IMG/VR virus record: IMGVR_UViG_3300030104_006170
Length of the DNA stretch: 64,000 nt
Origin: a virus
Taxonomy: Duplodnaviria; Caudoviricetes
Strand: one strand, 5' to 3'
Shown piece by piece: positions 24,286 to 63,270 of this stretch (positions within the stretch are counted from its first letter, which is position 1; each line of letters starts with the position of its first letter). A model generated the notes under the pieces. The model searched no databases. It had not been told where the DNA came from and was given only the letters and a program-made list of their open reading frames with translations. The position numbers and the translations under genes are program-made.

Positions 24286-25779
24286 ATGATACACAGGTCA
24301 TATTTTAGCAAAAACAATACTCTACTTGCAAATAACGAAGTTAATACTGGGAGAAATCCAGTAACACAACTTTTTTACGGTAAGGGTGTAACTAATAGTT
24401 GTAGATTTACTGGTTCTGCTGACCACATATGTAATGGACAAACAGGATTTACTAAAAATTTAGATACTGGATTTAGTAGATTTATTTTTAATTTAGATTT
24501 AGAAGATTTAAGAGAAAAAATAAACAGTTGTTGTATACCCGCATTAACATCTTTAACTCACACCATAAAAATGACTAATACTTCTCATTTTGATGATACT
24601 TTGATGAATGATAAAATATTAGTTGATGGTACCAGACGTGCTACATCTTTTACTTTGATGTTATTTAAAGCTACTACTGGTAGCTCTTGGTCAGAAGGTG
24701 TTGGTTATGATTATCAAGTTGCTGATGGTATGTTTGCACCGGAATTTGATTTAACTCATTCTACAAGACCCAGTAATTGGTTTTCCTCGACAACTCTAAG
24801 TATGTGGGCTATTCCAGGTACCTATGATAATAATGATAATACAACTTATACTGTTTTAGACACGCAAGTTTTTGACCAAGGTAATGAAAATATAGAATTT
24901 AATAGTTTAGCACTTAATACGGAGATAAATAATTTACTAATTTTACCAACAGCAACTACTTCAGCTAACACATATGGGATTGCTTTTATTCCAGCTTTTG
25001 AAAATATAACCGGTTTAACAGAGGCTTATTCTGTTGGTTTTTTTAGTAGACACACTCAAACATTTTATGAACCTTTTTTAGAAACTACTTTTGATGATGT
25101 TATAAATGATGATAGGGGAGATTTTCATTTAGGGGTTAATAATAGATTATTTTTGTACGCTTATGACCATAATGGTCATCCAATATGTTTTGATTTATTA
25201 CCTACTGTAGATATTAAGGACTGTAATGAAAGTACGGTTGCTACTTACACCGCAACCCAATTAACTTGTGGTGTTTATTATATACCACTATCTTTAACTA
25301 GTGTAGCACAAAGTCCACCAGTTATATATACCGATACTTGGTCTAATTTATTTGTGGGTGGTATATCACAACCTAACGTAACAAATGAATTTATAATTTA
25401 TAATAATAATTTAAGTATTGGTTCAACCGCGGGTGAACCTAAAATATATGGTTATTCTGTATCTGGAATTAAAGAAGATGAAAAAGTAACTAATGGAGAA
25501 ACAAGAAAAGTATTTGTTTCAACCAGAGTTCCTTACACTGTAGATGAACAAGTTTTAGTCGATAATTTGCAATATCGTCTCTATGTAACCCAAGGTACCA
25601 CTCAAGTGGAGGTAATTCCTTGGACACCCATTAACAAGTCATTTACACACAATTATTTTATGTTAGATACAGGATGGATGATTCCTAATGAATATCACCT
25701 AGATATCAAAGCAACTTCTAACCAACAAGTAGATATTTATAGGAAAGTAATAAAATTTCAAGTAATTAATCAATTATGA
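24286..25779 (+). CDS. hypothetical virion structural protein (beta/Ser-Thr rich)
   Basis: Late motif upstream; S/T/aromatic-rich; follows baseplate gene. Confidence 0.55.
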   Translation: MIHRSYFSKNNTLLANNEVNTGRNPVTQLFYGKGVTNSCRFTGSADHICNGQTGFTKNLDTGFSRFIFNLDLEDLREKINSCCIPALTSLTHTIKMTNTSHFDDTLMNDKILVDGTRRATSFTLMLFKATTGSSWSEGVGYDYQVADGMFAPEFDLTHSTRPSNWFSSTTLSMWAIPGTYDNNDNTTYTVLDTQVFDQGNENIEFNSLALNTEINNLLILPTATTSANTYGIAFIPAFENITGLTEAYSVGFFSRHTQTFYEPFLETTFDDVINDDRGDFHLGVNNRLFLYAYDHNGHPICFDLLPTVDIKDCNESTVATYTATQLTCGVYYIPLSLTSVAQSPPVIYTDTWSNLFVGGISQPNVTNEFIIYNNNLSIGSTAGEPKIYGYSVSGIKEDEKVTNGETRKVFVSTRVPYTVDEQVLVDNLQYRLYVTQGTTQVEVIPWTPINKSFTHNYFMLDTGWMIPNEYHLDIKATSNQQVDIYRKVIKFQVINQL

Positions 25780-26261
25780 AAAAAATAAGAATATCTGAAA
25801 GTGAACTAGTAGATTTAATAGAAAAACTAGTTAAAGAAAATCTAAGTAATGGTACTGGATTTGACTTTGGTATGTTGGGTACACCTACATCAAAGTATAA
25901 GGATTTATACGAAGATGAAGATATGGAAGAGGAAAAAGAGTTAGATGAAGATGAAGTTAATGTGGATACAGCACAGACTGGTGATAAAACATTAAATGTT
26001 AATGTAATGAAACAAACTAACCAATCTGACTGGATGGGTGAAAATAAAATTACTGAATCTCAGTTAGTTAGAAGGTTATCAAAAAAATTACATGAAGCAG
26101 AAGGAAAAGGATGTGCTGAATCAGAAGGTGGTTCTGGTTGTATTAAAAAAAGAGGAGACGGCTGGGTTATATTAAATAACAAAAAAGGTGGTGTCTGGAG
26201 AAAATGTACTAGTGAAAAAGATTGTCAAGAACAATTAGACGCTTTTCACGCTAATAAATAA
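25776..26261 (+). CDS. putative head-internal protein with class-A leader
   Basis: N-terminus MKKIRISESELVDLIEKLVKE; acidic linker; small Cys-containing C-terminal domain. Confidence 0.55.
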   Translation: MKKIRISESELVDLIEKLVKENLSNGTGFDFGMLGTPTSKYKDLYEDEDMEEEKELDEDEVNVDTAQTGDKTLNVNVMKQTNQSDWMGENKITESQLVRRLSKKLHEAEGKGCAESEGGSGCIKKRGDGWVILNNKKGGVWRKCTSEKDCQEQLDAFHANK

Positions 26262-26281
26262 AACTTAAAAAATTAAAAATT

Positions 26282-26347
26282 ATGAAATGTGATTGTCAAA
26301 TATGTAAGTGTGGTACTAAATGTGACTGTACTTGTTGTGACTGTTAG
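26282..26347 (+). CDS. metallothionein-like 21-aa peptide MKCDCQICKCGTKCDCTCCDC (absent from ORF track)
   Basis: 9 Cys in 21 aa in CxC/CC patterns; A-rich leader with A at -3; followed by terminator. Confidence 0.7.
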   Translation: MKCDCQICKCGTKCDCTCCDC

Positions 26348-26377
26348 ATAACAGTTAATTAAAAAATAAAGATATAA

Positions 26378-26403
26378 AAAAACCACTCAAAAGAGTGGTT
26401 TTT
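26378..26403. terminator. bidirectional intrinsic terminator
   Basis: AAAAACCACTC-AAAA-GAGTGGTTTTT between convergent operons. Confidence 0.85.
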
Positions 26404-26408
26404 GTTTT

Positions 26409-26699
26409 TTAGATATCTTCCTCATCATAATCATATTCATGAGTTACAGTTGTTCTAGTTGGTTCTGGTTCTTCTTCCACAACAACCTCATCTTTCGGTG
26501 AGAAATTTTCTGCAGCTGTAAAACCAAGACCTGCCATTACAATCCATTGTAAAGACTCGAATAAATTATTGTCAATTGTGAAATCCCAAAAAAGATTTGC
26601 TGTGTAACCAATTAACATAAATAGAAGACATACGAAAGTAACAAATCTTTTACTAGAGACTTTACCTTCACTACTTAACATGTTTTTAAAGAAGTTCAT
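26409..26699 (-). CDS. two-TM membrane protein, holin-like (start moved to MNFFK at 26699)
   Basis: SSKRF followed by two hydrophobic helices and an acidic tail; late motif at 26712-26719 supports the later start. Confidence 0.5.
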   Translation of the reverse strand: MNFFKNMLSSEGKVSSKRFVTFVCLLFMLIGYTANLFWDFTIDNNLFESLQWIVMAGLGFTAAENFSPKDEVVVEEEPEPTRTTVTHEYDYDEEDI

Positions 26700-26711
26700 A
26701 AGCGTTTTTAT

Positions 26712-26719
26712 TATAAATA
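26712..26719 (-). promoter_or_regulatory. candidate phage late promoter TATTTATA
   Basis: Between capsid terminator and holin-like start. Confidence 0.6.
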
Positions 26720-26728
26720 TCAGTGCAT

Positions 26729-26755
26729 AAAAAAAAGCCCTCATAAAGAGGGCTT
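26729..26755 (-). terminator. intrinsic terminator after major capsid gene
   Basis: AAGCCCTC-ATAAA-GAGGGCTT with U-tract on the minus strand. Confidence 0.85.
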
Positions 26756-26780
26756 CTTTTATATATAACTTATTCAGTTA

Positions 26781-28613
26781 TTAGAATCTTTTCAATTCTC
26801 TTACATCAAATGTTCTAACTCCATCAACAGTGATTCTTCCATAGAATCTGTTGTTAACCATTTTCTTAGCGTATCTAGTCATGATACCTTTGATTGGTGT
26901 AAAGTTGAATGGGTTATACATTGTAGGTGTCAACTGTAATGGTACATATGGTGCGTAAACGTACCCAGTATCCAATAAAGATGTTCCTTTATGTCCAATT
27001 AACACTTGGTTAGCTGGGAAGTAAGGGTCTCTATATACAGTAAATCTACCTGATAAAGTACCTATTTTCTCAATACCCATGTTATATTGGTCTTGTTCTG
27101 GTGCTGCGTTTGAAACGTGGAAGTACTCCAAGTCATCAAATATTGCAGAAACTTCAGAAGAACATACAATCCAGTTAGCCCCACCTCTCAATGTTGACTT
27201 GTGAATTTGAGCTGATAACTGATTAATAGCAGTAATCAACGTTTGATTCCAGTCTTTTTGAGTGTAAGGTGCTTGACCTGCAGAGAATCTCTTCCATCCG
27301 TTGTAATCCCATCTTAAGTCCCAAGCTGCTCCTTTTCTAAGGTCTCTCAAGATTTCTCTATCGATTTCAGCTGCAACTTCTTCAGATAATAAAGCTGTTA
27401 ATTCAGCTTCAGCATCGATGTTATGGAATGCAGAAACATCTTGTGCAAGTTCTGGTGACCATTGTGCTCTTAATTTTCTTTCAGTAACAGAAACTGTAAC
27501 AGCTTGTAAGTCGAAAGAAACTTCACCCATTTGGTCTTCAAATTCAAGAGTTGAGTACTGTCTCCAAGTAGCTGTGATATTTTGTGACGCTGCTGTAGAA
27601 CCTACATAACCATCAATCGAACGATAAGATGTTTCACCACAATCAACACATGCTGGACATGAAGTATCAACTTCTAAATAAATATTTCCTTGTGAATCAC
27701 AAACGTCAGTTCTATCAACAATTCCAAAACCATACTTTTGTGTAACAACACGGAATAACATTGGTTTATCAACACCGTAAACCATTGTTCCACCTGAGTT
27801 TGCGTTAGTAGAAGAATTACAACACCATACTCCAGATGCGTTTGATAACGTTAATGAAGCTAAGAACTCTTCAGTATCTTGCTCATTTCCATCAGGTCCA
27901 GTTAATTTACCAACACCAGCAGTATTAAATCCTGCTAATTTAACGATAGCACTTCTTGTACCACCTTTTGGTATACCCACACCATAACCTAAAGTTGTAG
28001 TAGCGTTACATCCAGATAATGAGTTCATCGCTGCATAATCTTGTAATGTATTACCGTTCCAAATTACGTTTGTTGTAGAAGCTGCACTTGACGTGTAGTT
28101 ACCTTTTGAGTAGTCATAAAGACCGTCATCAGCTGCTGTAGGTGCGTTACCAGCATAGTACTCATCATATAATGAAGTAGATGCTGCAGAAAATGCTGCT
28201 CCTGGTGTAGTAGGTACATTAGGTGCAGTACCAGTTTCTGGTGCTCCATAAGGTGCATAGTGTGTTCCACCTGGTTGTGCTCCAATTTTAGGTACAAAGT
28301 AGAACAATTTACCGATTGGTAAGTTCATAGCTTGTACAGAAACGATATCGTTTGCCAATAATTTAGAGAAAACTCTTCTAATTATTGGGAAAACAACTGT
28401 TTCGAATGAACCTGAATCAGAAGCTGTAGTAGCTTCGTTGATTAGGTTTGTTGCTTGGTTTTCATATAGCTGAGCTATATTTTCTCTAACGTGACCTTTA
28501 AGTCCGTCTAGGAATCCAAGACCATCCCATTTTGCTAAGGTATCTTCTTTGATAACTTTTAGGTGTTTTAACCCAATGTTACCAACCATACCTGATTCTA
28601 ATAGTGCTCCCAT
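26781..28613 (-). CDS. major capsid protein, T4 gp23-like
   Basis: FPIIRRVF..LLAN.IVSVQ.M..P.G, VSFDL..VTV...RKLRAQWSPELAQD..AFH.IDAEAELT.LLS, YAPYVPL, GIMTRY. Confidence 0.95.
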   Translation of the reverse strand: MGALLESGMVGNIGLKHLKVIKEDTLAKWDGLGFLDGLKGHVRENIAQLYENQATNLINEATTASDSGSFETVVFPIIRRVFSKLLANDIVSVQAMNLPIGKLFYFVPKIGAQPGGTHYAPYGAPETGTAPNVPTTPGAAFSAASTSLYDEYYAGNAPTAADDGLYDYSKGNYTSSAASTTNVIWNGNTLQDYAAMNSLSGCNATTTLGYGVGIPKGGTRSAIVKLAGFNTAGVGKLTGPDGNEQDTEEFLASLTLSNASGVWCCNSSTNANSGGTMVYGVDKPMLFRVVTQKYGFGIVDRTDVCDSQGNIYLEVDTSCPACVDCGETSYRSIDGYVGSTAASQNITATWRQYSTLEFEDQMGEVSFDLQAVTVSVTERKLRAQWSPELAQDVSAFHNIDAEAELTALLSEEVAAEIDREILRDLRKGAAWDLRWDYNGWKRFSAGQAPYTQKDWNQTLITAINQLSAQIHKSTLRGGANWIVCSSEVSAIFDDLEYFHVSNAAPEQDQYNMGIEKIGTLSGRFTVYRDPYFPANQVLIGHKGTSLLDTGYVYAPYVPLQLTPTMYNPFNFTPIKGIMTRYAKKMVNNRFYGRITVDGVRTFDVRELKRF

Positions 28614-28643: not shown

Positions 28644-30170
28644 TTATAATTTAGACATTAAGTCTTTCATCCTACTAAATTGAGGGTTTTCGTAAATTTT
28701 TGATTCCAATAATTTACCTCCACCACTAGTAGGTGATTTAGTAATTTTCTGCTCCACTGACTCAGAAATTGTTTTTGTAGGTTTAGCTACTTCCTGAGAA
28801 AGTTCTTCTTTGATTACCTTATACAACTCTTTAGAACCTTTTAATGAGTTTATCCCATCAAAACGTTTTAATATGTTGATTTTTTCCTGCTTGGTAGTTG
28901 AATGTTCAGTAAATAGACGTGTTACGTAAGCTAAGTTTGAATTAAACACACCCACTTCATTCAGTTTATCTCTAAAAGTTGTCAAAGCTTTCTTATAGTC
29001 AGAATTTTTAACTTTTAAAGTTTCTACCTCTTCTTTAAGAAGATTGTAGGACTTTCTTATACGACTTTCACCAAGGTTACGATTGTTAGTGATTCCTTTT
29101 CTAAAAGAAGGCTTGTGTTTTCCACCAGACTCTCTTCCAAACCCTAAAGTTCTTGAAGCTTCTTTCATTTCGTAATCTCTATGAGTTGCTGACTGGTCAC
29201 CTTTTTTAGCTCCACCTTCTTTTACTTCTTCGTAATCTAAATGTGTTGCTGATTGGTCCCCTTTTTTAGCTCCTCCTTCTTTCATTTCGTAATCTCTGTG
29301 AGTTGCAGATTGGTCTCCTTTTTTAGCACCCCCTTCCTTCATATAATCTCTATGTGTTGCTGATTGGTCTCCCTTCTTAGCACCACCTTCCTTCATATAA
29401 TCTCTGTGAGTTGCGGATTGGTCACCTTTTTTAGCTCCGCCTTCTTCCATATCTTCCATTTCCATCATGTCTCCACCTTCCTTTTCATAATCTTTAAGTT
29501 TCCTTTTCGATTCAGGTTGGTCTACGCCCATAACTTTACCATGTCCTTCGTCCATGTCATCCATTTCGTCTAGCTCAATTTCATAAACTATTTCTTCGTC
29601 CATTTCTTCCATCTCATCCATGTCATCCATTTCGTCCATGTTATCCATGTCCATTTCTGACACTTCTGTTTTGTTTTCGTTGACTGCTTTTTTCATAGTT
29701 TTTGTTTTTTTGCTTTCGTCTAATTTAATGATGTATTCAGTATCAGTAGTATTGTCGGTTAACTCAATTTCGTCATCGTCCTGTTGGATAATGATTCCAT
29801 CTTCGTCTCCCATTGCTTTAAATACTTTTAATACTTCTTCATCGGATGCTAATGTTAAATCTAGAGGTGGCAGTTCAGGTAACTCTACGTCGTCTGTCTC
29901 GTCCTCAATATCAAGTTCCATATCATCTCCCATTTCAGTTTCCATGTCCATTTCCATTTCGTCATCGTCCATGTCATCGTCTAGGTCAATCATATCAACT
30001 TCTTCTTCTTCTTGCTCCTTAAGGTAATCGTCTGTATTTAACGATTCTTTTACTAATTCGTGAATTTCTTCCTTCATTGTTGAAGCAAGTATTTCTTTTG
30101 CATTAGACTTCATAGTTTCTTCCAACTGTTCCGCCTCGAGCAACGCTTTTTCTAAAATTGATTCGCTCAC
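28644..30170 (-). CDS. prohead core/scaffold protein (gp22-like position), GTG start
   Basis: Between protease and capsid genes; highly acidic; C-terminal coiled coil; many [ILV]-x-E sites. Confidence 0.75.
   Translation of the reverse strand: MSESILEKALLEAEQLEETMKSNAKEILASTMKEEIHELVKESLNTDDYLKEQEEEEVDMIDLDDDMDDDEMEMDMETEMGDDMELDIEDETDDVELPELPPLDLTLASDEEVLKVFKAMGDEDGIIIQQDDDEIELTDNTTDTEYIIKLDESKKTKTMKKAVNENKTEVSEMDMDNMDEMDDMDEMEEMDEEIVYEIELDEMDDMDEGHGKVMGVDQPESKRKLKDYEKEGGDMMEMEDMEEGGAKKGDQSATHRDYMKEGGAKKGDQSATHRDYMKEGGAKKGDQSATHRDYEMKEGGAKKGDQSATHLDYEEVKEGGAKKGDQSATHRDYEMKEASRTLGFGRESGGKHKPSFRKGITNNRNLGESRIRKSYNLLKEEVETLKVKNSDYKKALTTFRDKLNEVGVFNSNLAYVTRLFTEHSTTKQEKINILKRFDGINSLKGSKELYKVIKEELSQEVAKPTKTISESVEQKITKSPTSGGGKLLESKIYENPQFSRMKDLMSKL
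29161..29444 (-). repeat. five in-frame tandem repeats (54-60 nt) encoding EGGAKKGDQSATHRDY(E)MK
   Basis: Repeats seen directly in DNA and protein, with synonymous differences between units. Confidence 0.95.
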
Positions 30171-30287: not shown

Positions 30288-30980
30288 TTATCTATTTAAG
30301 AAATTGTCTAGTTTAGACATCATAGATAATGACTTGTTTACTGTATTAGATTTTGACGATTCTATCATTTCTGTTGGTTCATCTACACTGTCAGCTTTTT
30401 CGTCTTCTTTAAATAAATATGACCCTGGAGTTGATGGTGAAGAAACCAAATCGAAACAAATTAATTCAAAATCTTCTTGTACTTCATTATACTCTCCATT
30501 TTTAGTTAATGAACCCACACCTCTAGAAGAAATACCTAATGTTACACCTTGTCTTAATAAATTAGCGGCCATATCACCAACACACGATATTACACCTTCT
30601 TTTAAATAACCTGGAGATGTTAATAATTTAAGTTTACCTATTAATCTATTTCCATCCCACCAGGTTTCTGTAATTATGTGAGAAGCTCTATCTAAATCGA
30701 TAAGTGAAGATTCTGGGTGGTTAAGTTCTGATATTGCACCACCTCTTTTTATAACTTCCTGGTATCTTTCGTTTTCTCTTTTTAATATATTTTCTGGGTA
30801 TATTCTACCGTTTCTATTTGGGGTGTTATATTTTTGGAGTATTGCGTTCATATATATTTCACCATCGAAGTTGTCTTTTGCCATTTCTCTTAAGATTCCT
30901 TTGTTGTCATCTGGTGAAAGGTGTCCGTCATGCTCAACTAATATTCCATGACCGATTTCTCTTGCTTCTAATACTCTCAT
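30288..30980 (-). CDS. prohead protease, T4 gp21-like
   Basis: NRNGRIYP, ELNHP, SHII, GISSRGVGSL, FDLVSSPSTPG. Confidence 0.93.
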   Translation of the reverse strand: MRVLEAREIGHGILVEHDGHLSPDDNKGILREMAKDNFDGEIYMNAILQKYNTPNRNGRIYPENILKRENERYQEVIKRGGAISELNHPESSLIDLDRASHIITETWWDGNRLIGKLKLLTSPGYLKEGVISCVGDMAANLLRQGVTLGISSRGVGSLTKNGEYNEVQEDFELICFDLVSSPSTPGSYLFKEDEKADSVDEPTEMIESSKSNTVNKSLSMMSKLDNFLNR

Positions 30981-32272: not shown

Positions 32273-34117
32273 TTAATCCTCTAATAATGAATCTACCTTA
32301 TCATTTATACTATCAATATTATTTTTTGTTCTATTTACTACCTCCTGTAACCCATCCAAAGATAGACCTTTTTCTTCCATTAATAATGGTAACCCTTTTT
32401 CTTTTTTAAACGATTCTGCTGCTGGAACTGGTTCTGTCACTTCATCTCCACCACCAGGAGCCTCAGTTTCAGGACCACCCATATCAAAATCTGCAACATC
32501 CTGACTTCCCGTATCTAGTCCTGGTTCATCACCTGCTGTATCTGCTCCACCTTCACCACCTTCCTCAGTTGGTGGTTCTCCGTATAATTTGTCAACAGTA
32601 TTAAATAATCCTGTTTTCTTAATAGTTTCTGCAGTTTTTTCTAATTCACCTGATAATGCTTTTTCAAATCTTTGTTGTTGTAAATCTAATTTAATTTCTT
32701 CATCACTCATCCCTAAAATAAATTTCTTTGCCCATGTTGCTGATACCGGAGCTATACCACTACCAGGGTCTCCTACAGCATCTTTATATAAAGTTATTTT
32801 AGTTTGCCATTGTTCTAACTTTAATAATTCAGCTTGTGTCGATGGGTTCGTCAATCCTAAAGAAAAATTCTCTAGTTCATCCTCAAAACCTAAAACATAT
32901 AAATGAATAATAGCTATTTTATTTAATTCTTGTATAATAGCTTTTTGAATCTTATTTATGGTTCTTGCAAATCTAATATCTAATAAAGCCAAATTTTTAC
33001 CTTCTCCAACAACCTCCTCAAAACCTAAAAATGCTTTTGGTATTCTAAGAGATGCTAGGAGTTTTTTCTGGATATATTCAATATCTGCAATTTCACTTAG
33101 GTTGGTTGCTCCAGGTAGTGTATCTATTGGACTTGCCGCTGCTTGGTCTCTTACAGGTATAAAATAATCTTGGTCAACAGCCATTTGATTCATTCTCAAA
33201 TCTACATTACCGTTTTGTGGGTCAACAATAGGGTCTCTTTTAAATTTATTTGCAACTTTTTGGATATAAGCTTCGACATCCTTATCATCCATATTACCAA
33301 CAAAAACTTTAAAAACTCTCCTTTCAGGTGCTCTAGAAGTTCTATAGACTAACATAGCGTCCTCAGCTAACAATAATTGTTTCCATATTCTTCTACATTT
33401 TTCCAACATTGACGTACCGTAAGGTAGTCTTCTATCATCACCTAGTAACCTAAAGTGAGCTACCTCCCAAGAATTGAATTTGATGTCTTTTTCTCTCCAA
33501 TTAAATTCTACTTTATGAGCGTTAGGGTCATCGTTACTTATCTGGTTTAACGCACTATGCCCCTCATTTCTTTCCAATTCAATATTAGGTAATTGATTAA
33601 CACCGATAATTCCTTTTTCCGGGTCAATTTTAAGATAAACAAAATTATCACCATATTTACACGTATTACGAATCCACATAGGTAAATTTGTATTAACATC
33701 TAATACGTTATTAAATAAATCACCTAAAATAGATTTAATTCTAGTGGACTCAGAGTATATGGACAACATGTAACCTTTTTCTGATGGTGTAGTTGCTTCT
33801 TCGGAGTATATATCTAACGCTGCTGATATTTCTGGTGTAAATTCCATTGATTCATAATCGTAATATGAAGCTAGTCTTGTTGGTTCATAGTATACTGATT
33901 TTGTATATAATTCATTATCTATTTTTTGCCATTGATTGGATAGATAAAGTGATTGTTGCATTTGAAGTTTTTCCTTTTCAAACTCATCTTTCGAGTCTGT
34001 TTTAAGGATATCTTTTGGTAACATCTTAAATTTTTGGTACGTTGGTTCCTCTTGTGTGGGGCCACCAGGTCCAAATAATTTACTCAGTCTTTGGTATATT
34101 GTTAAGTTATCTGCCAT
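32273..34117 (-). CDS. portal protein, T4 gp20-like
   Basis: EISAALDIY.EEAT, YGTSMLE..R..WKQL.L.EDA..VYR.SRAPERRVF.V.VGN, DYFIPVR, IDTLPG..NL.EI.DIEY. Confidence 0.95.
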   Translation of the reverse strand: MADNLTIYQRLSKLFGPGGPTQEEPTYQKFKMLPKDILKTDSKDEFEKEKLQMQQSLYLSNQWQKIDNELYTKSVYYEPTRLASYYDYESMEFTPEISAALDIYSEEATTPSEKGYMLSIYSESTRIKSILGDLFNNVLDVNTNLPMWIRNTCKYGDNFVYLKIDPEKGIIGVNQLPNIELERNEGHSALNQISNDDPNAHKVEFNWREKDIKFNSWEVAHFRLLGDDRRLPYGTSMLEKCRRIWKQLLLAEDAMLVYRTSRAPERRVFKVFVGNMDDKDVEAYIQKVANKFKRDPIVDPQNGNVDLRMNQMAVDQDYFIPVRDQAAASPIDTLPGATNLSEIADIEYIQKKLLASLRIPKAFLGFEEVVGEGKNLALLDIRFARTINKIQKAIIQELNKIAIIHLYVLGFEDELENFSLGLTNPSTQAELLKLEQWQTKITLYKDAVGDPGSGIAPVSATWAKKFILGMSDEEIKLDLQQQRFEKALSGELEKTAETIKKTGLFNTVDKLYGEPPTEEGGEGGADTAGDEPGLDTGSQDVADFDMGGPETEAPGGGDEVTEPVPAAESFKKEKGLPLLMEEKGLSLDGLQEVVNRTKNNIDSINDKVDSLLED

Positions 34118-34161: not shown

Positions 34162-35907
34162 TTATCGGACCTTCCCAAATAACCACCCGTAATCTTTATA
34201 CATCTGTTTTGCATCACTATTTTGATTTCCTGGTTGTCCAAAAATCCCTCTATTAGCTGGTGGTTTTCTATGTTCTGGTTCTTTACTTTCTCCATTTGCA
34301 CTCCCTGAAGTGGTCCAACTATCCAACATAGCTTTAGTTAAACTATCTGCTTTTTGTAGTTGTGAAAAAGAATTTTCCCCCACATATAAAGCCATTGCTA
34401 TTGCCATTATTAAATCATCGTGTTTTCCCTTCATATGATTAGGTTTACCATTTATATAGACAAAAGTATATAATTCGTTCAATAATCTTTTAGAACGTAT
34501 AGTAAATTTATGTCTTAATGACTCTTCAAATGCCGCTACAATTTGACTTCGTTTATTATTAAAAGCCAATCCTGGAGTTTTATTTCCATCATTAGGGTTG
34601 TATTTCCATTTATCAGCGGTATTCATACCTTCAACATATAGGTCTTTATACCCTAGTTCTTGTAGTTTTCTAGATGTTGCGACACCCATACCACCTGTAA
34701 TGTCAGTAACAACATAAGCATTGTACATACTCCCCCATTTATATACTATATCTGCTGCTAAATCTGGCGGTATCTTACCTAAATATTCTAAAACCTGACA
34801 CCTTTCATCAAAATCTATTATGATGATAGAAGTAAAATCTTCTGAGTCACCCCTACTAACATCACACCCCAAAATATATCTGTGACCTTCTTTAGGTTTT
34901 TCCCAAACCCATAACTGATTACCCACAAACATTTCTTCTGGGTCTCTGATATCTTCATTTTTTATTCTCTCTATTGTCTCTACTGGTATTACATTATCTC
35001 CTGAACCTAAAAAAGCACTTTCTAATTCTTGTGAAACTTTTCTTCTATCGTACTTAAGTTTTTTAACCATACTCTCAAACCAAGAAGAACAAGGTTTATA
35101 ACCATTCCTAATTAAATCCTCAAACTTATCTAAACTTTTTTCATGTATAAATTCATCCTCATTATAATCTTCCCTATTTAATAAAAAATGCACTATATCT
35201 TTACATTTAACCCAAAAAAGGTCTTTTGTAAATCTGGGGTCATTTTCCCAATGTAGTTCAGAAATATGAAAACTATTTAAACCTTTGATGGCTTGTTCAT
35301 ATATTTCATAATATATTTTATCATAACCATTAGGTGTAGATATCACTATTACTTTACCACCCGTGGATAAGGATGCCATACATGCCGCCCAAAAATCATC
35401 ACCAGCTTCAATATATGCAGCTTCGTCAAATATTAGTGTTGTTGGTGTGTATCCCCTTAATGCATCTACTGATGTTGCTACTGCTTTAACTTCACAACCA
35501 TTATTTAACTTGAAATGTTTTTGTGAGTCTTTTTCTTTAGAAAAACCTACGTTAATCCAATCAGGCCACTGATTTAAAAAACCTCTAACTTTATTTGCAA
35601 ATTCAGATGCAGTATCTAATTTATTTGCAATAATAAGTATTTTTTCTGGTTTAGTTTTAGAAGCAAATTGTAATTTTTTGGACACCCAAGCTGCTGTAGC
35701 TGTTGAAACTCCGGCTTGTCTATACTTTTTAGTTATGTTGTCACTATACTCATCAAAATTAGATAACATCATCTCCTGTTCAGGAAACAAATTAAAAGGT
35801 ACATATTTAGATTGTGTATTGTCGTATGTTTCTAGATATGTTTTAATAGCATAATTAGTATCTTGTAAGCATCTTGCATATTCTTTTATCAACTCTTGTT
35901 TGTCCAT
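34162..35907 (-). CDS. terminase large subunit, T4 gp17-like
   Basis: Walker A variant KYRQAGVST, Walker B LIFDEAAYI, ISTPNG, nuclease motifs GCDVSRG and HDDLIMA. Confidence 0.93.
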   Translation of the reverse strand: MDKQELIKEYARCLQDTNYAIKTYLETYDNTQSKYVPFNLFPEQEMMLSNFDEYSDNITKKYRQAGVSTATAAWVSKKLQFASKTKPEKILIIANKLDTASEFANKVRGFLNQWPDWINVGFSKEKDSQKHFKLNNGCEVKAVATSVDALRGYTPTTLIFDEAAYIEAGDDFWAACMASLSTGGKVIVISTPNGYDKIYYEIYEQAIKGLNSFHISELHWENDPRFTKDLFWVKCKDIVHFLLNREDYNEDEFIHEKSLDKFEDLIRNGYKPCSSWFESMVKKLKYDRRKVSQELESAFLGSGDNVIPVETIERIKNEDIRDPEEMFVGNQLWVWEKPKEGHRYILGCDVSRGDSEDFTSIIIIDFDERCQVLEYLGKIPPDLAADIVYKWGSMYNAYVVTDITGGMGVATSRKLQELGYKDLYVEGMNTADKWKYNPNDGNKTPGLAFNNKRSQIVAAFEESLRHKFTIRSKRLLNELYTFVYINGKPNHMKGKHDDLIMAIAMALYVGENSFSQLQKADSLTKAMLDSWTTSGSANGESKEPEHRKPPANRGIFGQPGNQNSDAKQMYKDYGWLFGKVR

Positions 35908-35911
35908 ATGC

Positions 35912-35919
35912 TATAAATA
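35912..35919 (-). promoter_or_regulatory. candidate phage late promoter TATTTATA (terminase)
   Basis: 4 nt before ATG 35907. Confidence 0.6.
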
Positions 35920-35938: not shown

Positions 35939-37258
35939 TTACAAGTTGTATAAAAAGTCTTTCTCGGCTTTTGTTAAAGAATCCATACCACTTTTATTTA
36001 TTTTGTCTAAAATAGTATCCATATCTAATTCTTCAACATCTGGAGTTGGCGGTGTGTCGTCTATTGGGGTGGGAGTTTCACCAGAAACATCTTCATAGTC
36101 TTCTTGTTTTAACTGTTTAACAATATCATCAACCATTTTCTTAACCTGGTCCTTACCTTTTTGACTACCGGACAATATTTCTTTAGCTAATTTAAGAAAT
36201 TCTTCAGCTTCTAGACTTACAAATTTAAAATAAAAGTAATTTTTAATTCTTTTTTGTTCCTCCATATCAAAAAAGTTATCTGGGTAAACTTCCAAAAATT
36301 TCTCCCAAATTACTGGTCCTAATCTTAAGTCCCATACTTCTGCTGGTAATGTATCTTCCATTCCAATTACCTCATCTGCCATTTCTGGGTCTGAAGGTAA
36401 ACCATGAGCTGATATATATTCCATAACACCCTTATATAATTCATGAACTAAAATAGGGAACATTAGTCCTGTTGCTTTAATTGTTGGTGGGTCTGTTTCT
36501 AGGTCTAGTTCTTCTTTTCCAGCCATTGCAGACTCTGCTCCTCCTCCACCCATCATACCTTCCATATCTGGCATCACCCAATAAAGTAAGTCATTTACTG
36601 ACATTACTATAGAATATAAACCAACTAAATCTGGATTAATATCATTCAATTTTTCATTAACTAAATGATACATATAGTGTGCTTTTTTTGCTGACCCTTG
36701 TATTAAAGAATTTATAAATCTTCTTTTTTGTTTTTCCAAATCTAATTTCTGAAGTCTTTTTGCGGCCTCATCTTCCATTTCAAAGTTAGGGAATTCTAGT
36801 TCTTTTTTCTTCTTTTTTTGAGGTTTCATTTGCATTCCAGAAGTGTCAGGTTTTTCTAATTTTGCGTCAAATTGTAAATCTCCTTCTGGTATACCCATTT
36901 CATCTACCACTAATTCTACAGCTAAATTTTCTAAAGTTTCTCTGTTTTGAGATTCTATTTGCATAATTCTTCTTGCTGCTTGCATTAACATTGGTTGTAA
37001 AGACATGAAAGTTTGTGGGTCAATATTTTCCACACCTGTCGCGTCTTTTACTTTTTGTACAACGTCTTGAAATCTTTGAGATGCGATTAATTCTTCAAAA
37101 TTATCTGGAATACCATCTTTATCTACATCTGGAAATGCTTGATGGCCACCTAGTGGGTGTTCCTGTGACCTTAACTTACGCTCAATGTCTGGTGACATTC
37201 TTTCTCTACCAGCACCATAATCAATAGGAGGTGCTTCATTAAGTTTTTTCTTAGCCAT
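35939..37258 (-). CDS. hypothetical late protein (N-terminal LNE|A site)
   Basis: Long ORF in late operon; MAKKKLNEA. Confidence 0.6.
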   Translation of the reverse strand: MAKKKLNEAPPIDYGAGRERMSPDIERKLRSQEHPLGGHQAFPDVDKDGIPDNFEELIASQRFQDVVQKVKDATGVENIDPQTFMSLQPMLMQAARRIMQIESQNRETLENLAVELVVDEMGIPEGDLQFDAKLEKPDTSGMQMKPQKKKKKELEFPNFEMEDEAAKRLQKLDLEKQKRRFINSLIQGSAKKAHYMYHLVNEKLNDINPDLVGLYSIVMSVNDLLYWVMPDMEGMMGGGGAESAMAGKEELDLETDPPTIKATGLMFPILVHELYKGVMEYISAHGLPSDPEMADEVIGMEDTLPAEVWDLRLGPVIWEKFLEVYPDNFFDMEEQKRIKNYFYFKFVSLEAEEFLKLAKEILSGSQKGKDQVKKMVDDIVKQLKQEDYEDVSGETPTPIDDTPPTPDVEELDMDTILDKINKSGMDSLTKAEKDFLYNL

Positions 37259-38330
37259 GTTGTGTTAGTGCTTTACCTAAATTAGTTGATTTTAACCAAT
37301 CCGGTAAAGAAGAGTCATTACCTCTAGCTTTAGGTTTTGGTTTGGTTTTTGGTTTTTCGAATGGTCCTCTTCTTTTCTTTTCTCCTGGTTTTGTTGGGGC
37401 TATGGTTGGTGTTTTTACTGGGGCAGTATCTACGGGAGCTCCTATATAGTCTCCTTCATCATCTCTATCAGTTTCACTTAATTCCATACCACCTACAGCA
37501 TTACCATTAAGTTTTATGTTACCTGATGGACAAATATTTAACTCTATAATTTGTTCGTTTTCTGGGTTTTGGAGGTACCCATTCATGTGTCCGTCATCAT
37601 CAAACCCATCAACTTCCACTGTCATAGGAGGTGTCATTTCTGAAGCGATATCCATAACCGTAGCAAATGAATCTTTTTGTGAATCAGTACCTATTGTATA
37701 TGGTGAATCCGTATCCACACCATTTAAATTTTCTTTTATAGTTTTTATAAAATTTCCTTTTGTAATTGTTGGTAGTTCCCTAGATTCCACTAACGACATT
37801 ATCCAACTCTCCAGAGCTTCTTGTTCATTTACATATTCAGGTAATTTTTCATAATCTGACTTACTCATCTTTGATGCTAATTTTTCTGCTGCTGCAGGGT
37901 TAACTGAGTATAAGTATTTTTGTTGAGCTTTGGAGGCAAATTTTTCTTCCACTTCTTGTGGTAGTTCAACTAACAATGGTTCTCCATCTATATCAACTTC
38001 TGGATTTCCCATTGGGTCGGTTTCTATATTTTTTTCTTCTTCGGTTTTATATTCTTCATTTGTAGTTACTGTTACCGAACCATCATCATTAGGTGTTACA
38101 GTACCGTCAACATTTAACCCACCATCATCCTGTTTCATTTTATCTACTTCTGATTTAGTATATGTTGTTTTTGTTACAGTTTTCTTTTCAGCTTCATTGA
38201 AGAGTTTTTTACTTAGTGCTTTTAACTGTGTGTCTGAAAATGAAGATAGGGTTCTATGAGTGAACCCTTCTTTTAAAAATCTTTTAACTAATTCTTTTCT
38301 ATTATTTAACATGCTCGAATTTTTTATCAA
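37251..38330 (-). CDS. hypothetical late protein with multiple [ILV]-x-E sites and Pro/Lys-rich tail (start may be 38312)
   Basis: Long ORF in late operon. Confidence 0.6.
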   Translation of the reverse strand: MIKNSSMLNNRKELVKRFLKEGFTHRTLSSFSDTQLKALSKKLFNEAEKKTVTKTTYTKSEVDKMKQDDGGLNVDGTVTPNDDGSVTVTTNEEYKTEEEKNIETDPMGNPEVDIDGEPLLVELPQEVEEKFASKAQQKYLYSVNPAAAEKLASKMSKSDYEKLPEYVNEQEALESWIMSLVESRELPTITKGNFIKTIKENLNGVDTDSPYTIGTDSQKDSFATVMDIASEMTPPMTVEVDGFDDDGHMNGYLQNPENEQIIELNICPSGNIKLNGNAVGGMELSETDRDDEGDYIGAPVDTAPVKTPTIAPTKPGEKKRRGPFEKPKTKPKPKARGNDSSLPDWLKSTNLGKALTQHG

Positions 38331-38710: not shown

Positions 38711-39904
38711 CTACTTTATACTACCATCTTTTTTTATAACTACTTTTTTGTTTGTGGATTCTAAAATTACATCCCCGTCCTTGTTTTCTTTATTTAATTT
38801 AATGTCCTGATTTTCTTTTAATACTTTTTTAATACTTAACTCTTGTTCTACTGTTTTAGCTACTTTAGTTAGTTTATTTTCTTTTAGTACATTTTTTAAT
38901 CTAGATTGTAAGTATTCTTTTGGGTCTACGGACTTAGTTTCTTTTTTTTTATCTTTTTTTGTAATATAAGATTCTAAAAGACTACCAACTCTTTGTTTTA
39001 GAGATTCCATAGCCATTTCTTCATCTTCCATATCCATATCCATATCTATCTCTTCATCACCCATATCCATGTCATCATCAGAACCTTCCATATCCATATC
39101 CATATCTACATCCATTTCTTCTTCATCACCATAACTTGTTTCATCCTCTTCAAATCTATCTAACACATCTTCTTTGTCCTCATCATCTAAATTATCTAAA
39201 TCAACAGCAGAAATGACAGAATTTAAAACATACTTAATATCTGAACTACCCATTTCTTCCTCAACGTCACGTAATTTTTGTCCTAACTTACCAGTTAACT
39301 TTTGGATTGATTTCATAAAACCTTCCATGTCTTCTTCGCCACCCATTTCATCTTCAACATCAACATCCATTTCTTCATCACCCATCTCATCTTCCATATC
39401 CATATCCATGTCAATATCGTCATCTCCCATATCGTCTTCCATATCCATGTCCATATCCATTTCTTCGTCACCACCTTCATTAGGTACATTTAAAACAAAT
39501 TTTTCTTGTTCATCCATTTCATTATAGGCTTCATCTACTTCATCATAAGCTTCATACATACTATCACCTTTTCCATCGTTATAAGCTTCGTTTAATGGTT
39601 TGAATATTAGATTCATTCTCTTAAGTGCAGCAGAATAACTTTTAAACCTATCTTTCTTTTTATTCATTCCACCACTTATATAGTCTAATTCAGATTCATT
39701 GATACCTGATTTTAAATAATAACCATCCTTTTCTTGGATTATAGCATATGTTTTACCGTCTGCTGCTTTTTTACTGAATGAATTAGTGTTAGTGTGATAC
39801 TCGTCATTTTTTTTGACTTCACCATAACGAGCAATTTCCATGATTCTTTTAATCTTGTCTTGTCCCGTTAATTTTTCACTTCCTATAGGTTTTAATTTTC
39901 CCAT
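38711..39904 (-). CDS. acidic Asp/Glu/Met low-complexity protein, putative head core component
   Basis: Two MDMDMDME-type tracts; several LxE sites. Confidence 0.55.
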   Translation of the reverse strand: MGKLKPIGSEKLTGQDKIKRIMEIARYGEVKKNDEYHTNTNSFSKKAADGKTYAIIQEKDGYYLKSGINESELDYISGGMNKKKDRFKSYSAALKRMNLIFKPLNEAYNDGKGDSMYEAYDEVDEAYNEMDEQEKFVLNVPNEGGDEEMDMDMDMEDDMGDDDIDMDMDMEDEMGDEEMDVDVEDEMGGEEDMEGFMKSIQKLTGKLGQKLRDVEEEMGSSDIKYVLNSVISAVDLDNLDDEDKEDVLDRFEEDETSYGDEEEMDVDMDMDMEGSDDDMDMGDEEIDMDMDMEDEEMAMESLKQRVGSLLESYITKKDKKKETKSVDPKEYLQSRLKNVLKENKLTKVAKTVEQELSIKKVLKENQDIKLNKENKDGDVILESTNKKVVIKKDGSIK

Positions 39905-47083: not shown

Positions 47084-47584
47084 ATGAAATTAGAAAAAGC
47101 AAGAAATATAGCCCTTAAATTGATGAGACAACACGGTCTCAATGACTACACTTTTAAGTGGGACAGAGCGGTTCGTAGATTTGGTTGCCACAATGGTAGA
47201 TTAAAAACACTTTCGCTTTCTAGACCTATGACTCAACACGAAACTAACGAAAAAAGAGTAATTAATACCATCCTTCATGAAATTGCACATGGACTAGATT
47301 ATAAAAACAGAGGATATTCAAATCATGATTCCGAGTGGAAAAGAGTGGCTAGGTCTATTGGTTGTAGTGGTGAAAGATGTAGTAGTGGGTCTGGTGTTGA
47401 CAAGTCTCAATTTATGAAATGGGTAGCTACTTGCCCTAATTGTGAAAGAGAAGTTTATTATGCAAGAAAAACAAAAGTAGAGAAAGCGTGTGGTAGTTGT
47501 TGTAAAAAACATAATAACAACAAATACACATCAAAGTATAAGTTTAACTGGGAATTAAATCCCAAAGTTGTAAAATATAGATAA
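47084..47584 (+). CDS. SprT-like zinc metalloprotease
   Basis: TILHEIAH, HDSEWK, CxxC...CxxC zinc ribbon. Confidence 0.9.
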   Translation: MKLEKARNIALKLMRQHGLNDYTFKWDRAVRRFGCHNGRLKTLSLSRPMTQHETNEKRVINTILHEIAHGLDYKNRGYSNHDSEWKRVARSIGCSGERCSSGSGVDKSQFMKWVATCPNCEREVYYARKTKVEKACGSCCKKHNNNKYTSKYKFNWELNPKVVKYR

Positions 47585-58629: not shown

Positions 58630-58633
58630 TAGT

Positions 58634-59236
58634 ATGAAAACAATAATAACTACATTACTAATTTTACTAGGGTTGAATACTTACTCACAAACGTGTGAGG
58701 TTGGTTTAATGGTTAATGGTAAGTTAACTTACTTTGAGTACGATTGTAACAATAAGGAACATGGTATAGATAGTATTAAGATAGCTAATTATAATTTTTT
58801 GACTTTATCTGAATTAAAAGAGTTGGACTTGTTAGTTTTTAGGTATGTTAACGAACATAGAATTAAAAATGGTCTAGGTAAACTACCTTGGGATTCGGAA
58901 CTTTATAAAATTACTGAGTCTCATACTAAATACCAGTTTGATAATGGTGTGGTAGAACACGAACAAAATGGAAAATCTTATGAAGAAAGAGTAAGAGAAA
59001 ATGGAATCTATATGGGTGAGTGTGTTTTGTTAACTGGTCCATGTGTTAATATAGATGATAAGGCTAGAAAAATTGTTCGTCAGTGGGTTGAGAGTCCAAC
59101 CCATAACCGTATATTGTTAGATATTAAAGCTAAGTCTATTTCGGTTTCCACAAAACTAGGTACTTTTTACTGTTCCTGGGATAATAATAAATTATATTTG
59201 GGTTCTGGCGTTTCTACTTTAAATGTTAGATATTAA
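58634..59236 (+). CDS. secreted CAP (SCP/PR-1) domain protein 1
   Basis: Signal peptide ending TYS-Q; VNEHR.KNGL..L.WD.EL...TE.H; WVESPTHNRILL. Confidence 0.85.
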   Translation: MKTIITTLLILLGLNTYSQTCEVGLMVNGKLTYFEYDCNNKEHGIDSIKIANYNFLTLSELKELDLLVFRYVNEHRIKNGLGKLPWDSELYKITESHTKYQFDNGVVEHEQNGKSYEERVRENGIYMGECVLLTGPCVNIDDKARKIVRQWVESPTHNRILLDIKAKSISVSTKLGTFYCSWDNNKLYLGSGVSTLNVRY

Positions 59237-60864: not shown

Positions 60865-60868
60865 ATAA

Positions 60869-60876
60869 TATAAATA
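60869..60876 (-). promoter_or_regulatory. candidate phage late promoter TATTTATA
   Basis: 4 nt before ATG 60864. Confidence 0.6.
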
Positions 60877-60921
60877 CTGGTAACCTGTATTAAAATACCT
60901 CGTATAATTAAGTACAATTCA

Positions 60922-60953
60922 TTTGGTCATTTAATTTAAATTTATTATCTTTG
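60922..60953 (+). promoter_or_regulatory. Bacteroidota-type -33/-7 promoter, 4 nt before ATG
   Basis: TTTG-N20-TATCTTTG-TAGT-ATG. Confidence 0.75.
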
Positions 60954-60957
60954 TAGT

Positions 60958-61497
60958 ATGAAAAATATAACAACAACCATATTATTAGTTTTACTATCTT
61001 TATTAAGTTATTCTCAAGAGTACTACAGAGACACTACTATAGAACGAGCTGTTTTTAACGAAGTAAACCGACACAGAGATAGTCTGGGATTACACATGGT
61101 AAAATTTAACTCGGATAATATCCTAGCTTCTCCATGGGCAGAGACATTAACTAAACACGACTTAGAGACAGGTGGAAAGATTTATCATTGTGGTTGTAAT
61201 CCTGGTGTTGAGATTATTGCTATTAAGGTTATTGGTGATGAGGATAGAGTAACGATGGGTATAGATGAAATAGCTAAAAAAATAGTTCTAGCGTGGGATA
61301 ATTCTCCTTCTCATAAAGAAGGTATGGAAGATATTAATATGAAAAGAGGTTTCAATGCTGTGTACGTATTCAAAAGTAAAAGATACGGAGGTAAGTACGT
61401 GGCGTTATCAGTGTACCAATTTATTAGAGATAAAGAATATTATGTAAACTTAGACTGGGACGAAAATAAAAAAGTACCTAACCAATTCTTAGATTAA
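60958..61497 (+). CDS. secreted CAP (SCP/PR-1) domain protein 2
   Basis: Signal peptide ending SYS-Q; VNRHRDSLGL; AWDNSPSHKEGM. Confidence 0.8.
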   Translation: MKNITTTILLVLLSLLSYSQEYYRDTTIERAVFNEVNRHRDSLGLHMVKFNSDNILASPWAETLTKHDLETGGKIYHCGCNPGVEIIAIKVIGDEDRVTMGIDEIAKKIVLAWDNSPSHKEGMEDINMKRGFNAVYVFKSKRYGGKYVALSVYQFIRDKEYYVNLDWDENKKVPNQFLD

Positions 61498-61500
61498 TAA

Positions 61501-61525
61501 AAAAAGGACCGTATGGTCCTTTTTT
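61501..61525. terminator. bidirectional intrinsic terminator
   Basis: AAAAAGGACC-GTAT-GGTCCTTTTT; same stem as at 50119. Confidence 0.85.
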
Positions 61526-61554
61526 ATATTAGTATATTATAATTTATTGTGATG

Positions 61555-62754
61555 TTACTTCATAGCTATAATCACCTCTTCTGCTTCTTTTTTAACAACA
61601 GATTTCTTTCTTGGTGACTTTTGACTCTTCCAAGTAATTTTGCCTGGAATATAAACTACCATACTGACGATAATTCCTTGTCCTGCCATATCTGTTTCTG
61701 TTCCAGTTTCTGTACCTACAGTTCTACCTGGTGTCCCTTCTCTAGCTGGTTGTTCTGTACTTACTATAACATCAGCTCTCATTTCGTCACCACCAACAGA
61801 ATACTTATAAGAATCTACCTTAATACCTACTTTTTCTAACTCTTTACCTAAATTCTGTGCTCTTAAATAAGCTAGTACCTGATTACCTGTTTTTGGTTGT
61901 GTAAACTTACCTGTAGTATTTGTAGTAATTTGTTCATCCGTAAAATTAGAATACTTATCACCAACATTCTTTCTCCACACCGCTACATTAGCGATTGGTT
62001 CATCTGAAGCTACACCATTAATTATTACGTTTGTTACCACATTACCTTTTGAAGCTGAGTTTTGGATTTGTTTGATTAGTTGTTTCATTTTTCCTGGGTC
62101 AGGAATAACTTCTAAAACATTAAATGCTGAACCTCCTGGGATTGGCTCACCTTCCGATGCTACACTTCCTTCTGTACCCCCTTTAGTAACTGACTGGTAT
62201 GTCTTTTTTAATCTCGACGTTGAGAATTGTATTAGTTCGTCTGTTATGGCTTCGATATTTGTTTCGGTTTCTGATTCTCCTTCATTATAAGACCACCCCA
62301 CTATTTGTCTTGTTCCGAAATTTTTAAAATTAAACTCGTTAAGTTTTATACACCACTTATTAGGTGTATATTCTCTACCATCATCAATAACTACTAAATC
62401 ACTAGAATCTTCTGACTGTACTAACCTCACTTTTTCATTTATACCATCATCTGAATCTAACATATCTGGTCTTAACATCCAAGCCATATATTGCCATTCT
62501 CTACCCATTTTTGACAAATTGTCACCTTTAAATACTTTCATAAGGGACCTTCTTAAATCAGTAGCCCAAGATTCAAAATCATATCCTCCTGCTATGTTTG
62601 GTCTTACTTTTTCTACATTATCGTATAACTCACCTTTATAAGTTTCTAAAAAATCTGTCCATTTAGATATACTTCTGTAAAAATTTTCCTTTATTAAGTC
62701 AAGGCCCATTATTTCACGAGCTCTGTTTACTTCATTTAATATTTCTTTTTTCAT
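61555..62754 (-). CDS. class-B leader protein with OmpA_C-like domain
   Basis: MKKEILNEVNRAREIMGLDLIKEN; VIINGVASD...GNQVLAYLRAQNL...L...RADVIV. Confidence 0.55.
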   Translation of the reverse strand: MKKEILNEVNRAREIMGLDLIKENFYRSISKWTDFLETYKGELYDNVEKVRPNIAGGYDFESWATDLRRSLMKVFKGDNLSKMGREWQYMAWMLRPDMLDSDDGINEKVRLVQSEDSSDLVVIDDGREYTPNKWCIKLNEFNFKNFGTRQIVGWSYNEGESETETNIEAITDELIQFSTSRLKKTYQSVTKGGTEGSVASEGEPIPGGSAFNVLEVIPDPGKMKQLIKQIQNSASKGNVVTNVIINGVASDEPIANVAVWRKNVGDKYSNFTDEQITTNTTGKFTQPKTGNQVLAYLRAQNLGKELEKVGIKVDSYKYSVGGDEMRADVIVSTEQPAREGTPGRTVGTETGTETDMAGQGIIVSMVVYIPGKITWKSQKSPRKKSVVKKEAEEVIIAMK

Positions 62755-62787
62755 ATTCTTTTTTTTTAATAAATATTTAATTTATCG

Positions 62788-63270
62788 TTAATTCCACAAT
62801 ACGTGGACTGTTTTATCATTAAAGTCTATTTCTAACCCTGTCGGAAACACACTGTGTGAGAATAGTTCATCCGACATTTGGTCTTCGTAATGCCACTTAC
62901 CTTCTTCATCACTACTAAATCCACCCATGTCGTCTACCATTAATTCGATTTCTTTTTCTACCTCTACTTTGGTGTAATCTTCATCATATATTTCTACCAT
63001 CGCATTTATAATTACACTAGTGGTGTAAACACTCACGTCTTTGATTCCCCAACTTCTTACATCCATATCATATCTCCATTTAACATAACAGTTTGTATAT
63101 GTTACATCCATATCCTGACCACTATACTCGGTGAAATATTTTTCTAACCCGTAAAAACTAACATCTTGGACTTCAGTATTAAATGCGTTTGGGTCATCTG
63201 AATATTGTTCTTTTATTACCTTCTCAGTAATATTAACTAATTGACTTTCCTTTACGATTATTTTTTTCAT
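62788..63270 (-). CDS. class-A leader protein, acidic cargo
   Basis: MKKIIVKESQLVNITEKVIKEQ; three late motifs upstream. Confidence 0.6.
   Translation of the reverse strand: MKKIIVKESQLVNITEKVIKEQYSDDPNAFNTEVQDVSFYGLEKYFTEYSGQDMDVTYTNCYVKWRYDMDVRSWGIKDVSVYTTSVIINAMVEIYDEDYTKVEVEKEIELMVDDMGGFSSDEEGKWHYEDQMSDELFSHSVFPTGLEIDFNDKTVHVLWN

Follow-up and report, generated by a model that had tools for sequence, protein, structure and literature searches.

The internal proteins IPI, IPII and IPIII of bacteriophage T4, together with Alt, carry a capsid-targeting sequence (CTS) that is removed by the prohead protease gp21 (Mullaney & Black 1996; PMC9026906, PMC3012670). In IPIII, 10 N-terminal residues are enough for targeting to the head; positions 4 and 7 of the CTS are important for targeting, positions 8 and 10 for processing, and an Asp at position 10 blocks cleavage while leaving targeting intact (PMC9026906). 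The internal proteins of T-even phages are diverse, the CTS being their sole conserved part (PMC3012670). Here, two families of N-terminal leader peptides, termed class A and class B, are described on nine proteins encoded in a 64,000-nucleotide stretch of viral DNA (IMG/VR record IMGVR_UViG_3300030104_006170; hereafter the window). The best available reading, to which we assign a probability of ∼0.6, is that both leaders are N-terminal propeptides resembling the T4 CTS.

As in T4, a short N-terminal tag ending in [L/I]-x-E is placed on unrelated proteins, a gp21-family protease and a gp20-core-gp21-gp22-gp23 head module are encoded in the same genome, and the cargo genes vary between close strains while the tag is retained. 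The density of [LIV]xE sites also echoes T4, whose core proteins are cut to pieces, cleavage of the internal proteins being limited to the CTS. By analogy, the present system appears to work like the T4 CTS, which it matches on every testable point. It differs in having two distinct, strongly conserved tag classes and many more tagged genes, in bodies that are mostly acidic or cell-wall-binding/lytic whereas T4 internal proteins are small and basic, in internal tag copies within polyprotein-like genes, and in being known from sequence alone. The general tag principle is already known from T4; the present tags differ in length, sequence, classes, number and cargo.

Propeptide processing of head and inner-body or ejection proteins has also been described for the giant phages phiKZ, 201phi2-1 and SPN3US (PMC5694885, PMC7411985, PMC10052503). 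These are likewise jumbo phages, and in them a prohead protease related to gp21 cleaves numerous proteins of the head interior at a short motif whose last residue is Glu; they are not known to have a single conserved 20-residue leader on unrelated proteins, and the clade considered here differs further in being T4-like, not phiKZ-like. The sites reported for phiKZ-type giant phages are of the form S/A/G-x-E. Encapsulin cargo-loading peptides are short conserved terminal peptides that address diverse cargo into an HK97-fold shell; they are usually C-terminal, uncleaved and bind the shell directly, whereas the present tags are N-terminal, carry a protease-site motif and occur in a virus.

Two leader families on unrelated proteins

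An original prediction for this stretch had assigned the leaders to nine late proteins, and all nine open reading frames (ORFs; A1-A5 and B1-B4 in Table 1) were found at the assigned starts, each opening with the leader peptide quoted for it. The bodies beyond the leader are unrelated, as had been proposed: all-against-all BLASTP aligned only the first ∼25-60 residues (E values of 1e-3 to 1e-5), and none of the nine bodies scored above the family cut-off against Pfam or PHROG. Every leader ends in [LIV]xE (9/9, at residues 14-27), a motif that is weak and unspecific when taken alone because 29-42% of all proteins of these phages have it at the same residues. The sequence TATTTAT lies ≤45 nucleotides upstream of seven of the nine genes, and A3 and B1 lie behind B2 in a single operon with closely spaced genes. 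It had further been suggested that B3 and B4 (starts at 60864 and 62754) share an OmpA-like segment. This was borne out only as a likeness in the fold of B4: the model is poor overall (predicted local distance difference test, pLDDT, 48.9) and reaches 70-85 at residues 200-334, and Foldseek searches with residues ∼200-334 returned top matches that were nearly all OmpA/MotB peptidoglycan-binding domains (E ∼5e-3; template modelling score by target 0.45-0.55). B3 and B4 gave no significant alignment with each other (BLASTP E 7.4), and neither matched the Pfam OmpA family.

When the window and its relatives were scanned with profile models of the leaders, both classes recurred widely on unrelated proteins. 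The class B consensus, MKKxILxEINRxREIMGLxx[LI]xEQ, describes a 20-25-residue N-terminal tag that matches no Pfam or PHROG family. A four-leader class B profile retrieved 131 cluster representatives, differing by >50% in identity, at E ≤ 1e-3 among 1.84 billion proteins; nearly all matches fall at residues 1-25, in proteins of 29-1031 residues. The 71 full-length proteins (≥200 residues) form 26 body clusters at BLASTP E < 1e-3, and four of them have Pfam matches, Peptidase_M23 and Peptidase_S74 among these. Among relatives, Peptidase_M23 occurs with class B, and PPK2 plus lysozyme with a class B-like variant. The class B core pattern was confirmed at 24 loci in IMG/VR; a search of 596 Gb of cellular genomes gave three raw matches, none of which was confirmed, and tblastn with a 32-residue class B leader found no match among 50,697 GenBank phages. 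Tblastn with B1 gave no match in the same phages, a word-indexed search with residues 1-40 of B4 returned two orthologues only, and ESM Atlas placed A2 and B3 only in viral clusters without names. Full-text literature searches recovered no paper with 'REIMGL', and those on CTS in metagenomes or T4-like phages recovered only work on T4, SPN3US and P1.

Iterated profiles over four related records and the window yielded the class A consensus MKKxxLTESxLxxIVKRVIxEQ. Class A genes number 5-25 or 6-25 per record in this set and 2-13 in five further records, counts that are approximate because the gene calls, taken as the longest ATG ORFs, are crude. The raw class A pattern occurs in at least 592 stretches of IMG/VR. 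Among 31 class A proteins, 25 body clusters were distinguished and [LIVM]xE was present at residues 16-27 in 25; among relatives, PG_binding_1 occurs with class A. A look-alike sub-family of small paralogues, MKYLITESQL.., should be kept separate from class A. An array of the type MKY[LI]ITES[QK].. at 2.5-9.2 kb of the related record G003 (locus L039) comprises ∼11 tandem ORFs of 92-136 residues, at least five of them clear paralogues, that the class A profile detects.

Leader copies are not confined to N-termini. Proteins of 868-1031 residues hold a complete internal class B copy followed by L-x-E-Q between two modules, the downstream one resembling stand-alone tagged proteins; to judge from this arrangement, they look as would be expected for polyproteins cut at the tags. 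A1 carries a second class A copy at residues 91-111 (..KLHE/A, the slash marking the putative cut), between its acidic linker and its Cys-rich domain.

Where paralogous leaders have identical residues, the codon pairs differ in 51% of cases for class B and 34% for class A, with synonymous switches that include Arg CGN/AGR and Ser TCN/AGY. Such codon divergence would not be expected of a DNA repeat of recent origin or of a cassette with a regulatory role only; by this measure, selection acts on the leader peptide rather than on the DNA.

The predicted swapping of tags between cargoes was observed in the closest record compared, G001, an 82.8-kb IMG/VR contig (CheckV completeness 26%) with 97-99% identity across most of the window. 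Near-identical strains exchange bodies, and the break falls at the end of the leader: DNA homology between the window and G001 is lost after ∼16 codons of B4, and the G001 counterpart has the same leader (72% over 25 residues) on an unrelated body. B3 and the neighbouring CAP gene are absent from G001 and constitute an indel cassette. Apart from these differences, orthologues in relatives retain their leader class; the B2 ortholog at locus L031 has a class B leader closer to the canonical form than that of B2 itself. The pair of CAP gene and class B gene behaves like a single cassette, with gain, loss or replacement among strains of 97-99% identity.

The proposed 'polymorphic effector set' fits only in part. 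A1, A4 and B2 are very acidic and clade-conserved, A1 and A4 also being rich in internal [LIV]xE, and the sequences of all three look more like those of degradable prohead-core components than of injected effectors.

In 125 of 126 class B leaders, [LIVM]xE occurs ≤8 residues after ..IMGL, compared with 10% of control windows in the same proteins, a figure that is partly circular because the search profile spanned that stretch. The offset from ..IMGL is five in 86 leaders and six in 22; 115 leaders have L or I at P3, and 81 have Q at P1'. Comparison within the A2 family offers stronger evidence for the junction than the class B count. All 91 A2 homologues have HExxH, and the family carries three differing leaders (..RLIKE/A, ..RLISE/E and ..TRINE/A), each of which retains [LI]xE 2-3 residues ahead of the conserved body start, GVP..EFWVD. 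The AlphaFold2 model of A2 (pLDDT 85.6, predicted template modelling score 0.81) stays below a pLDDT of 50 over residues 1-17 and exceeds 90 beyond about residue 21, so that in the model the leader is a detached extension and the junction lies at the fold boundary. Searches with the A2 fold against PDB and AFDB clusters gave no convincing match and weak M48/DUF922 hints only. Homologues of 349 residues that seemed to be 'leaderless', and were considered as natural tag loss, proved to be gene-call artefacts, the upstream DNA encoding a leader and TATTTAT. The alternative A2 leader (MKH..TRINE/A) was not found on other genes of its contig, L090.

Head module, protease and upstream motif

A T4-type head module with T4 gene order (homologues of gp23, gp21, gp20 and gp17) occupies 26.8-35.9 kb on the minus strand of the window. 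Its prohead protease belongs to the S77 family, in which His88 and the Ser of GISSRG are invariant in 43 homologues. S77 is present in nine of the ten leader-bearing IMG/VR records, the tenth being 52% complete, a link that is not phylogenetically independent because these records make up one clade. Orthologs of A1 adjoin the head module in G002 and G004, and two class B genes of G004 come immediately after its capsid gene. A structure prediction of the S77 protease in complex with a class B leader gave a score of 0.00 with a partner pLDDT of ∼40, which speaks neither for nor against binding.

When the capsid protein is aligned to mature T4 gp23, the T4 maturation site falls near residue 44, in a stretch that contains VRE44, LYE51 and INE60; these sites are largely kept in three relatives (GRE replaces VRE44 in one). 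The density of [LIV]xE per 100 residues is 3.5-3.9 in the scaffold candidate, A1, A4 and g36, 0.7-1.7 in folded bodies and 1.9 on average over the window. The scaffold candidate matched no family. Its start is probably a GTG at 30170, opening an in-frame peptide, SESILEKALLEAEQLEE (30114-30170, minus strand), that is conserved in G003 and G004 and itself includes [LI]xE sites. PHROG scans of g35, g36, g40, g41, g43, g55 and g59 gave no functional annotation.

TATTTAT lies ≤45 nucleotides upstream of 28 of 42 leader genes and of 179 of 776 others (odds ratio 6.7, p = 7e-9), and also stands ahead of the terminase, portal, protease and g36 genes. The motif TATTTATA ends 3-35 nucleotides ahead of many start codons (for example at 35912, 34142, 45948, 60869 and 63273), the distance being 5 nucleotides for the terminase, A2 and B3. 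If TATTTATA were the -10 element of a late promoter, the mRNAs would be nearly leaderless. Read on the opposite strand, TATTTATA gives the T4 late promoter TATAAATA.

Proposed propeptides weighed against other explanations

With T4 as the model, we infer cleavage, targeting, packaging and ejection as follows. Each leader would form an amphipathic helix of ∼15 residues, to which class B adds a Gly-Leu break, followed by an exposed [L/I/V]-x-E site. Through its helix, a tagged protein would be drawn to the prohead core during assembly; the gp21-family protease would then cut after Glu, releasing the mature body within the head. A1, A4 and B2 would probably be core components that are degraded; A2 (HExxH), B4 (OmpA-like) and B3 (basic), and likewise relatives with PG_binding_1, M23 peptidase or PPK2 plus lysozyme domains, would probably be retained in the head and exit with the DNA. 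None of the nine proteins starts with a hydrophobic stretch like that of a signal peptide (judged by eye; no predictor was run), and a cell-wall-binding domain without a Sec signal makes sense for a protein that enters the periplasm from the virion, which a location in the tail would explain equally well.

Several observations weigh against a CTS-like role, in addition to the low specificity of [LIV]xE and the single clade behind the S77 link. The tags are 20-25 residues long rather than 10 and have no similarity to MKTYQEFIAE. Most tagged bodies are acidic, unlike the basic internal proteins of T4. A cultured relative, Flavobacterium phage immuto, has S77, and neither leader was found in it. 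Most class A genes of G003 lie 30-50 kb away from the head module. The MKYLITESQL.. sub-family lacks the [LIV]xE ending in 10 of 11 cases, so that part of the class A signal may reflect a general N-terminal helix. Finally, the ClpB/SprT neighbourhood of A2 could equally suggest a cytoplasmic proteostasis role for this protein.

The leaders might instead be uncleaved helices that dock their proteins to another hub, such as the tail or baseplate, the exterior of the portal or a membrane assembly site, with [LI]xE a mere helix end; they would then be comparable to the constant N-terminal anchors found on exchangeable tail fibres and spikes. A constant N-terminus joined to a C-terminus that is swapped between strains is indeed the usual pattern of receptor-binding proteins, domains directed at the cell wall are found repeatedly among the tagged bodies (PG_binding_1, M23 peptidase, lysozyme, OmpA-like fold), and one body has a Peptidase_S74 fibre-chaperone domain. 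We nevertheless consider docking unlikely, since the [LI]xE junction persists despite replacement of the leader and varying spacing, internal copies stand between modules in the manner of polyprotein junctions, and the A2 leader is not packed on its body in the model. Moreover, several tagged proteins are small, acidic and scaffold-like, and no tail genes were identified beside tagged genes.

Recognition by a phage chaperone (e.g. an Hsp70/ClpB pair) or by a modifying enzyme, such as a maturase of the kind that acts on ribosomally synthesized and post-translationally modified peptides, would also explain a shared N-terminal tag that is not a capsid address. The window encodes Hsp70, a ClpB-like ATPase with A2 directly downstream of it, and a SprT-like protease, and the class A helix is basic and hydrophobic in a way that we take to be DnaK-binding-like. 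Against such a role, Hsp70 occurs in 3 of 10 leader-bearing records and is missing from G003 (82% complete), the record richest in class A genes, whereas S77 is nearly constant in these records; radical-SAM (PF04055) was found in none of five records, compared with 14 of 14 control genomes. An explanation of this kind appears very improbable. Slighter still is the chance that the leaders are remnants of a mobile cassette of promoter and 5'-coding sequence, or of old paralogy, that recombination has spread and that has no dedicated peptide function. Mobile regulatory cassettes are said to shuffle T4-type phage genomes, a conserved upstream motif accompanies the leaders and recombination breakpoints fall at them; but this explanation sits poorly with the heavy synonymous divergence under conserved residues described above, with retention of the same peptide across the 131 divergent clusters, and with in-frame internal copies that are conserved as well.

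The propeptide reading can be extended to one in which the tags are two orthogonal addresses, by which a large and rapidly changing set of proteins is sorted to different fates in the head. Class A would direct proteins to the lumen or core, including those that are degraded, and class B would direct ejection proteins, peptidoglycan-binding or lytic, with a role in the periplasm of the host; polyproteins would be cut at internal tags. This extension is tentative and, as a whole, doubtful. If true, the virion-delivered arsenal would be far larger and more modular than the three internal proteins of T4. If the tags are capsid-loading propeptides, a sequence profile alone would list the proteins that are packaged, and possibly injected, by an abundant clade of uncultured marine phages of 280-300 kb; dozens of uncharacterised protein families would become candidates for factors of early host takeover or cell-wall crossing, and the T4 CTS principle would be seen scaled up in jumbo phages. 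The value as a delivery tool, which had also been put forward, is limited: T4 CTS fusions already serve this purpose, and there is no cultured host here, the host probably belonging to the marine Flavobacteriia.

Window, relatives and remaining features

The G+C content of the window is ∼31%. Sequence databases contain >6,000 relatives of the S77 protease at E ≤ 1e-10, Tara samples being the source of many, and relatives of the protease sit on contigs of 280-298 kb, many of Tara origin, which points to an uncultured marine jumbo T4-like phage as the source. None of the 50,697 GenBank phages is close, and megablast of the head module against them gave no match. The best capsid protein matches, at ∼42% identity, are to a 484-kb uncultured phage, Microcystis phage Mel-JY01 and Flavobacterium phage immuto.

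Table 1. Leader-bearing genes and other features. Positions refer to the window unless G001 is named; a slash in a leader ending marks the putative cut.
Feature	Position	Strand	Remarks
A1, 161 residues	25776-26261	+	class A leader, residues 1-21 (..KLVKE/N); acidic linker; C-terminal small Cys-rich domain
A2, 366 residues	45960-47060	+	divergent class A leader (..RRLIKE/A); invariant HExxH body, putative zinc peptidase, fold unmatched
A3, 416 residues	52985-54235	-	class A leader (..NLIVE/S); single hydrophobic transmembrane-like segment, residues 99-117
A4, 136 residues	55368-55778	-	class A leader (..KKIVE/Q); body isoelectric point (pI) 4.1, very acidic, [LIV]xE-rich, clade-conserved; core/scaffold-like
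A5, 160 residues	62788-63270	-	class A leader (..KVIKE/Q)
B1, 567 residues	51271-52974	-	class B leader (..IMGLKPLILE/Q)
B2, 248 residues	54237-54983	-	divergent class B leader; acidic body
B3, 543 residues	59233-60864	-	class B leader (..IMGLEVLLE/Q); basic body, pI 9.4
B4, 399 residues	61555-62754	-	class B leader (..IMGLDLIKE/N); OmpA-like fold, residues ∼200-334
Major capsid protein, gp23 family	26781-28613	-	PF07068, 251 bits
Scaffold/core candidate, gp22 position	28644-30170	-	acidic, 3.6 [LIV]xE per 100 residues; by position and composition
Prohead protease, T4 gp21 family	30288-30980	-	Peptidase_S77 PF03420, 90.5 bits against a cut-off of 27
g36 and g35	between portal and prohead protease		two small ORFs
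Portal, gp20 family	32273-34117	-	PF07230, 260 bits; preceded by TATTTATA motif
Large terminase	34162-35907	-	preceded by TATTTATA motif, as leader genes
PhoH	15587-16330		199 bits
Hsp70/DnaK, full-length	41850-43724	-	877 bits
ClpB-like double-AAA ATPase	43903-45939	+	directly upstream of A2
SprT-like zinc protease	47084-47584	+	downstream of A2
CAP/SCP-like protein, signal peptide	58634-59236	+	PF00188; convergent to class B gene
CAP/SCP-like protein, signal peptide	60958-61497	+	convergent to class B gene
CAP/SCP-like protein, signal peptide	G001 63118-63627		convergent to class B gene

A2 stands between the ClpB-like and SprT-like genes, and together with Hsp70 this group resembles a proteostasis cluster; the ClpB-A2-SprT synteny is conserved on a 286-kb relative. 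Leader-like N-terminal stretches that fall below the profile thresholds are encoded at 38711-39904 (minus strand; ..DKIKRIMEIA..) and 37251-38312 (minus strand; ..SDTQLKALSKKLFNE..), and may be divergent tags or chance.

Positions 1-19000 of the plus strand hold a long same-strand run of ORFs resembling glycosyltransferase and sugar-nucleotide enzymes, followed by PhoH; neither leader was found on any ORF of this run. Just beyond the right end of the window, G001 has a single ORF of 5090 residues (67399-82671, minus strand), and the matching region of the relative L007 contains ORFs of 1443 residues and more, one with a weak Peptidase_S74 match. The 5090-residue product is probably a giant fibre or structural protein.

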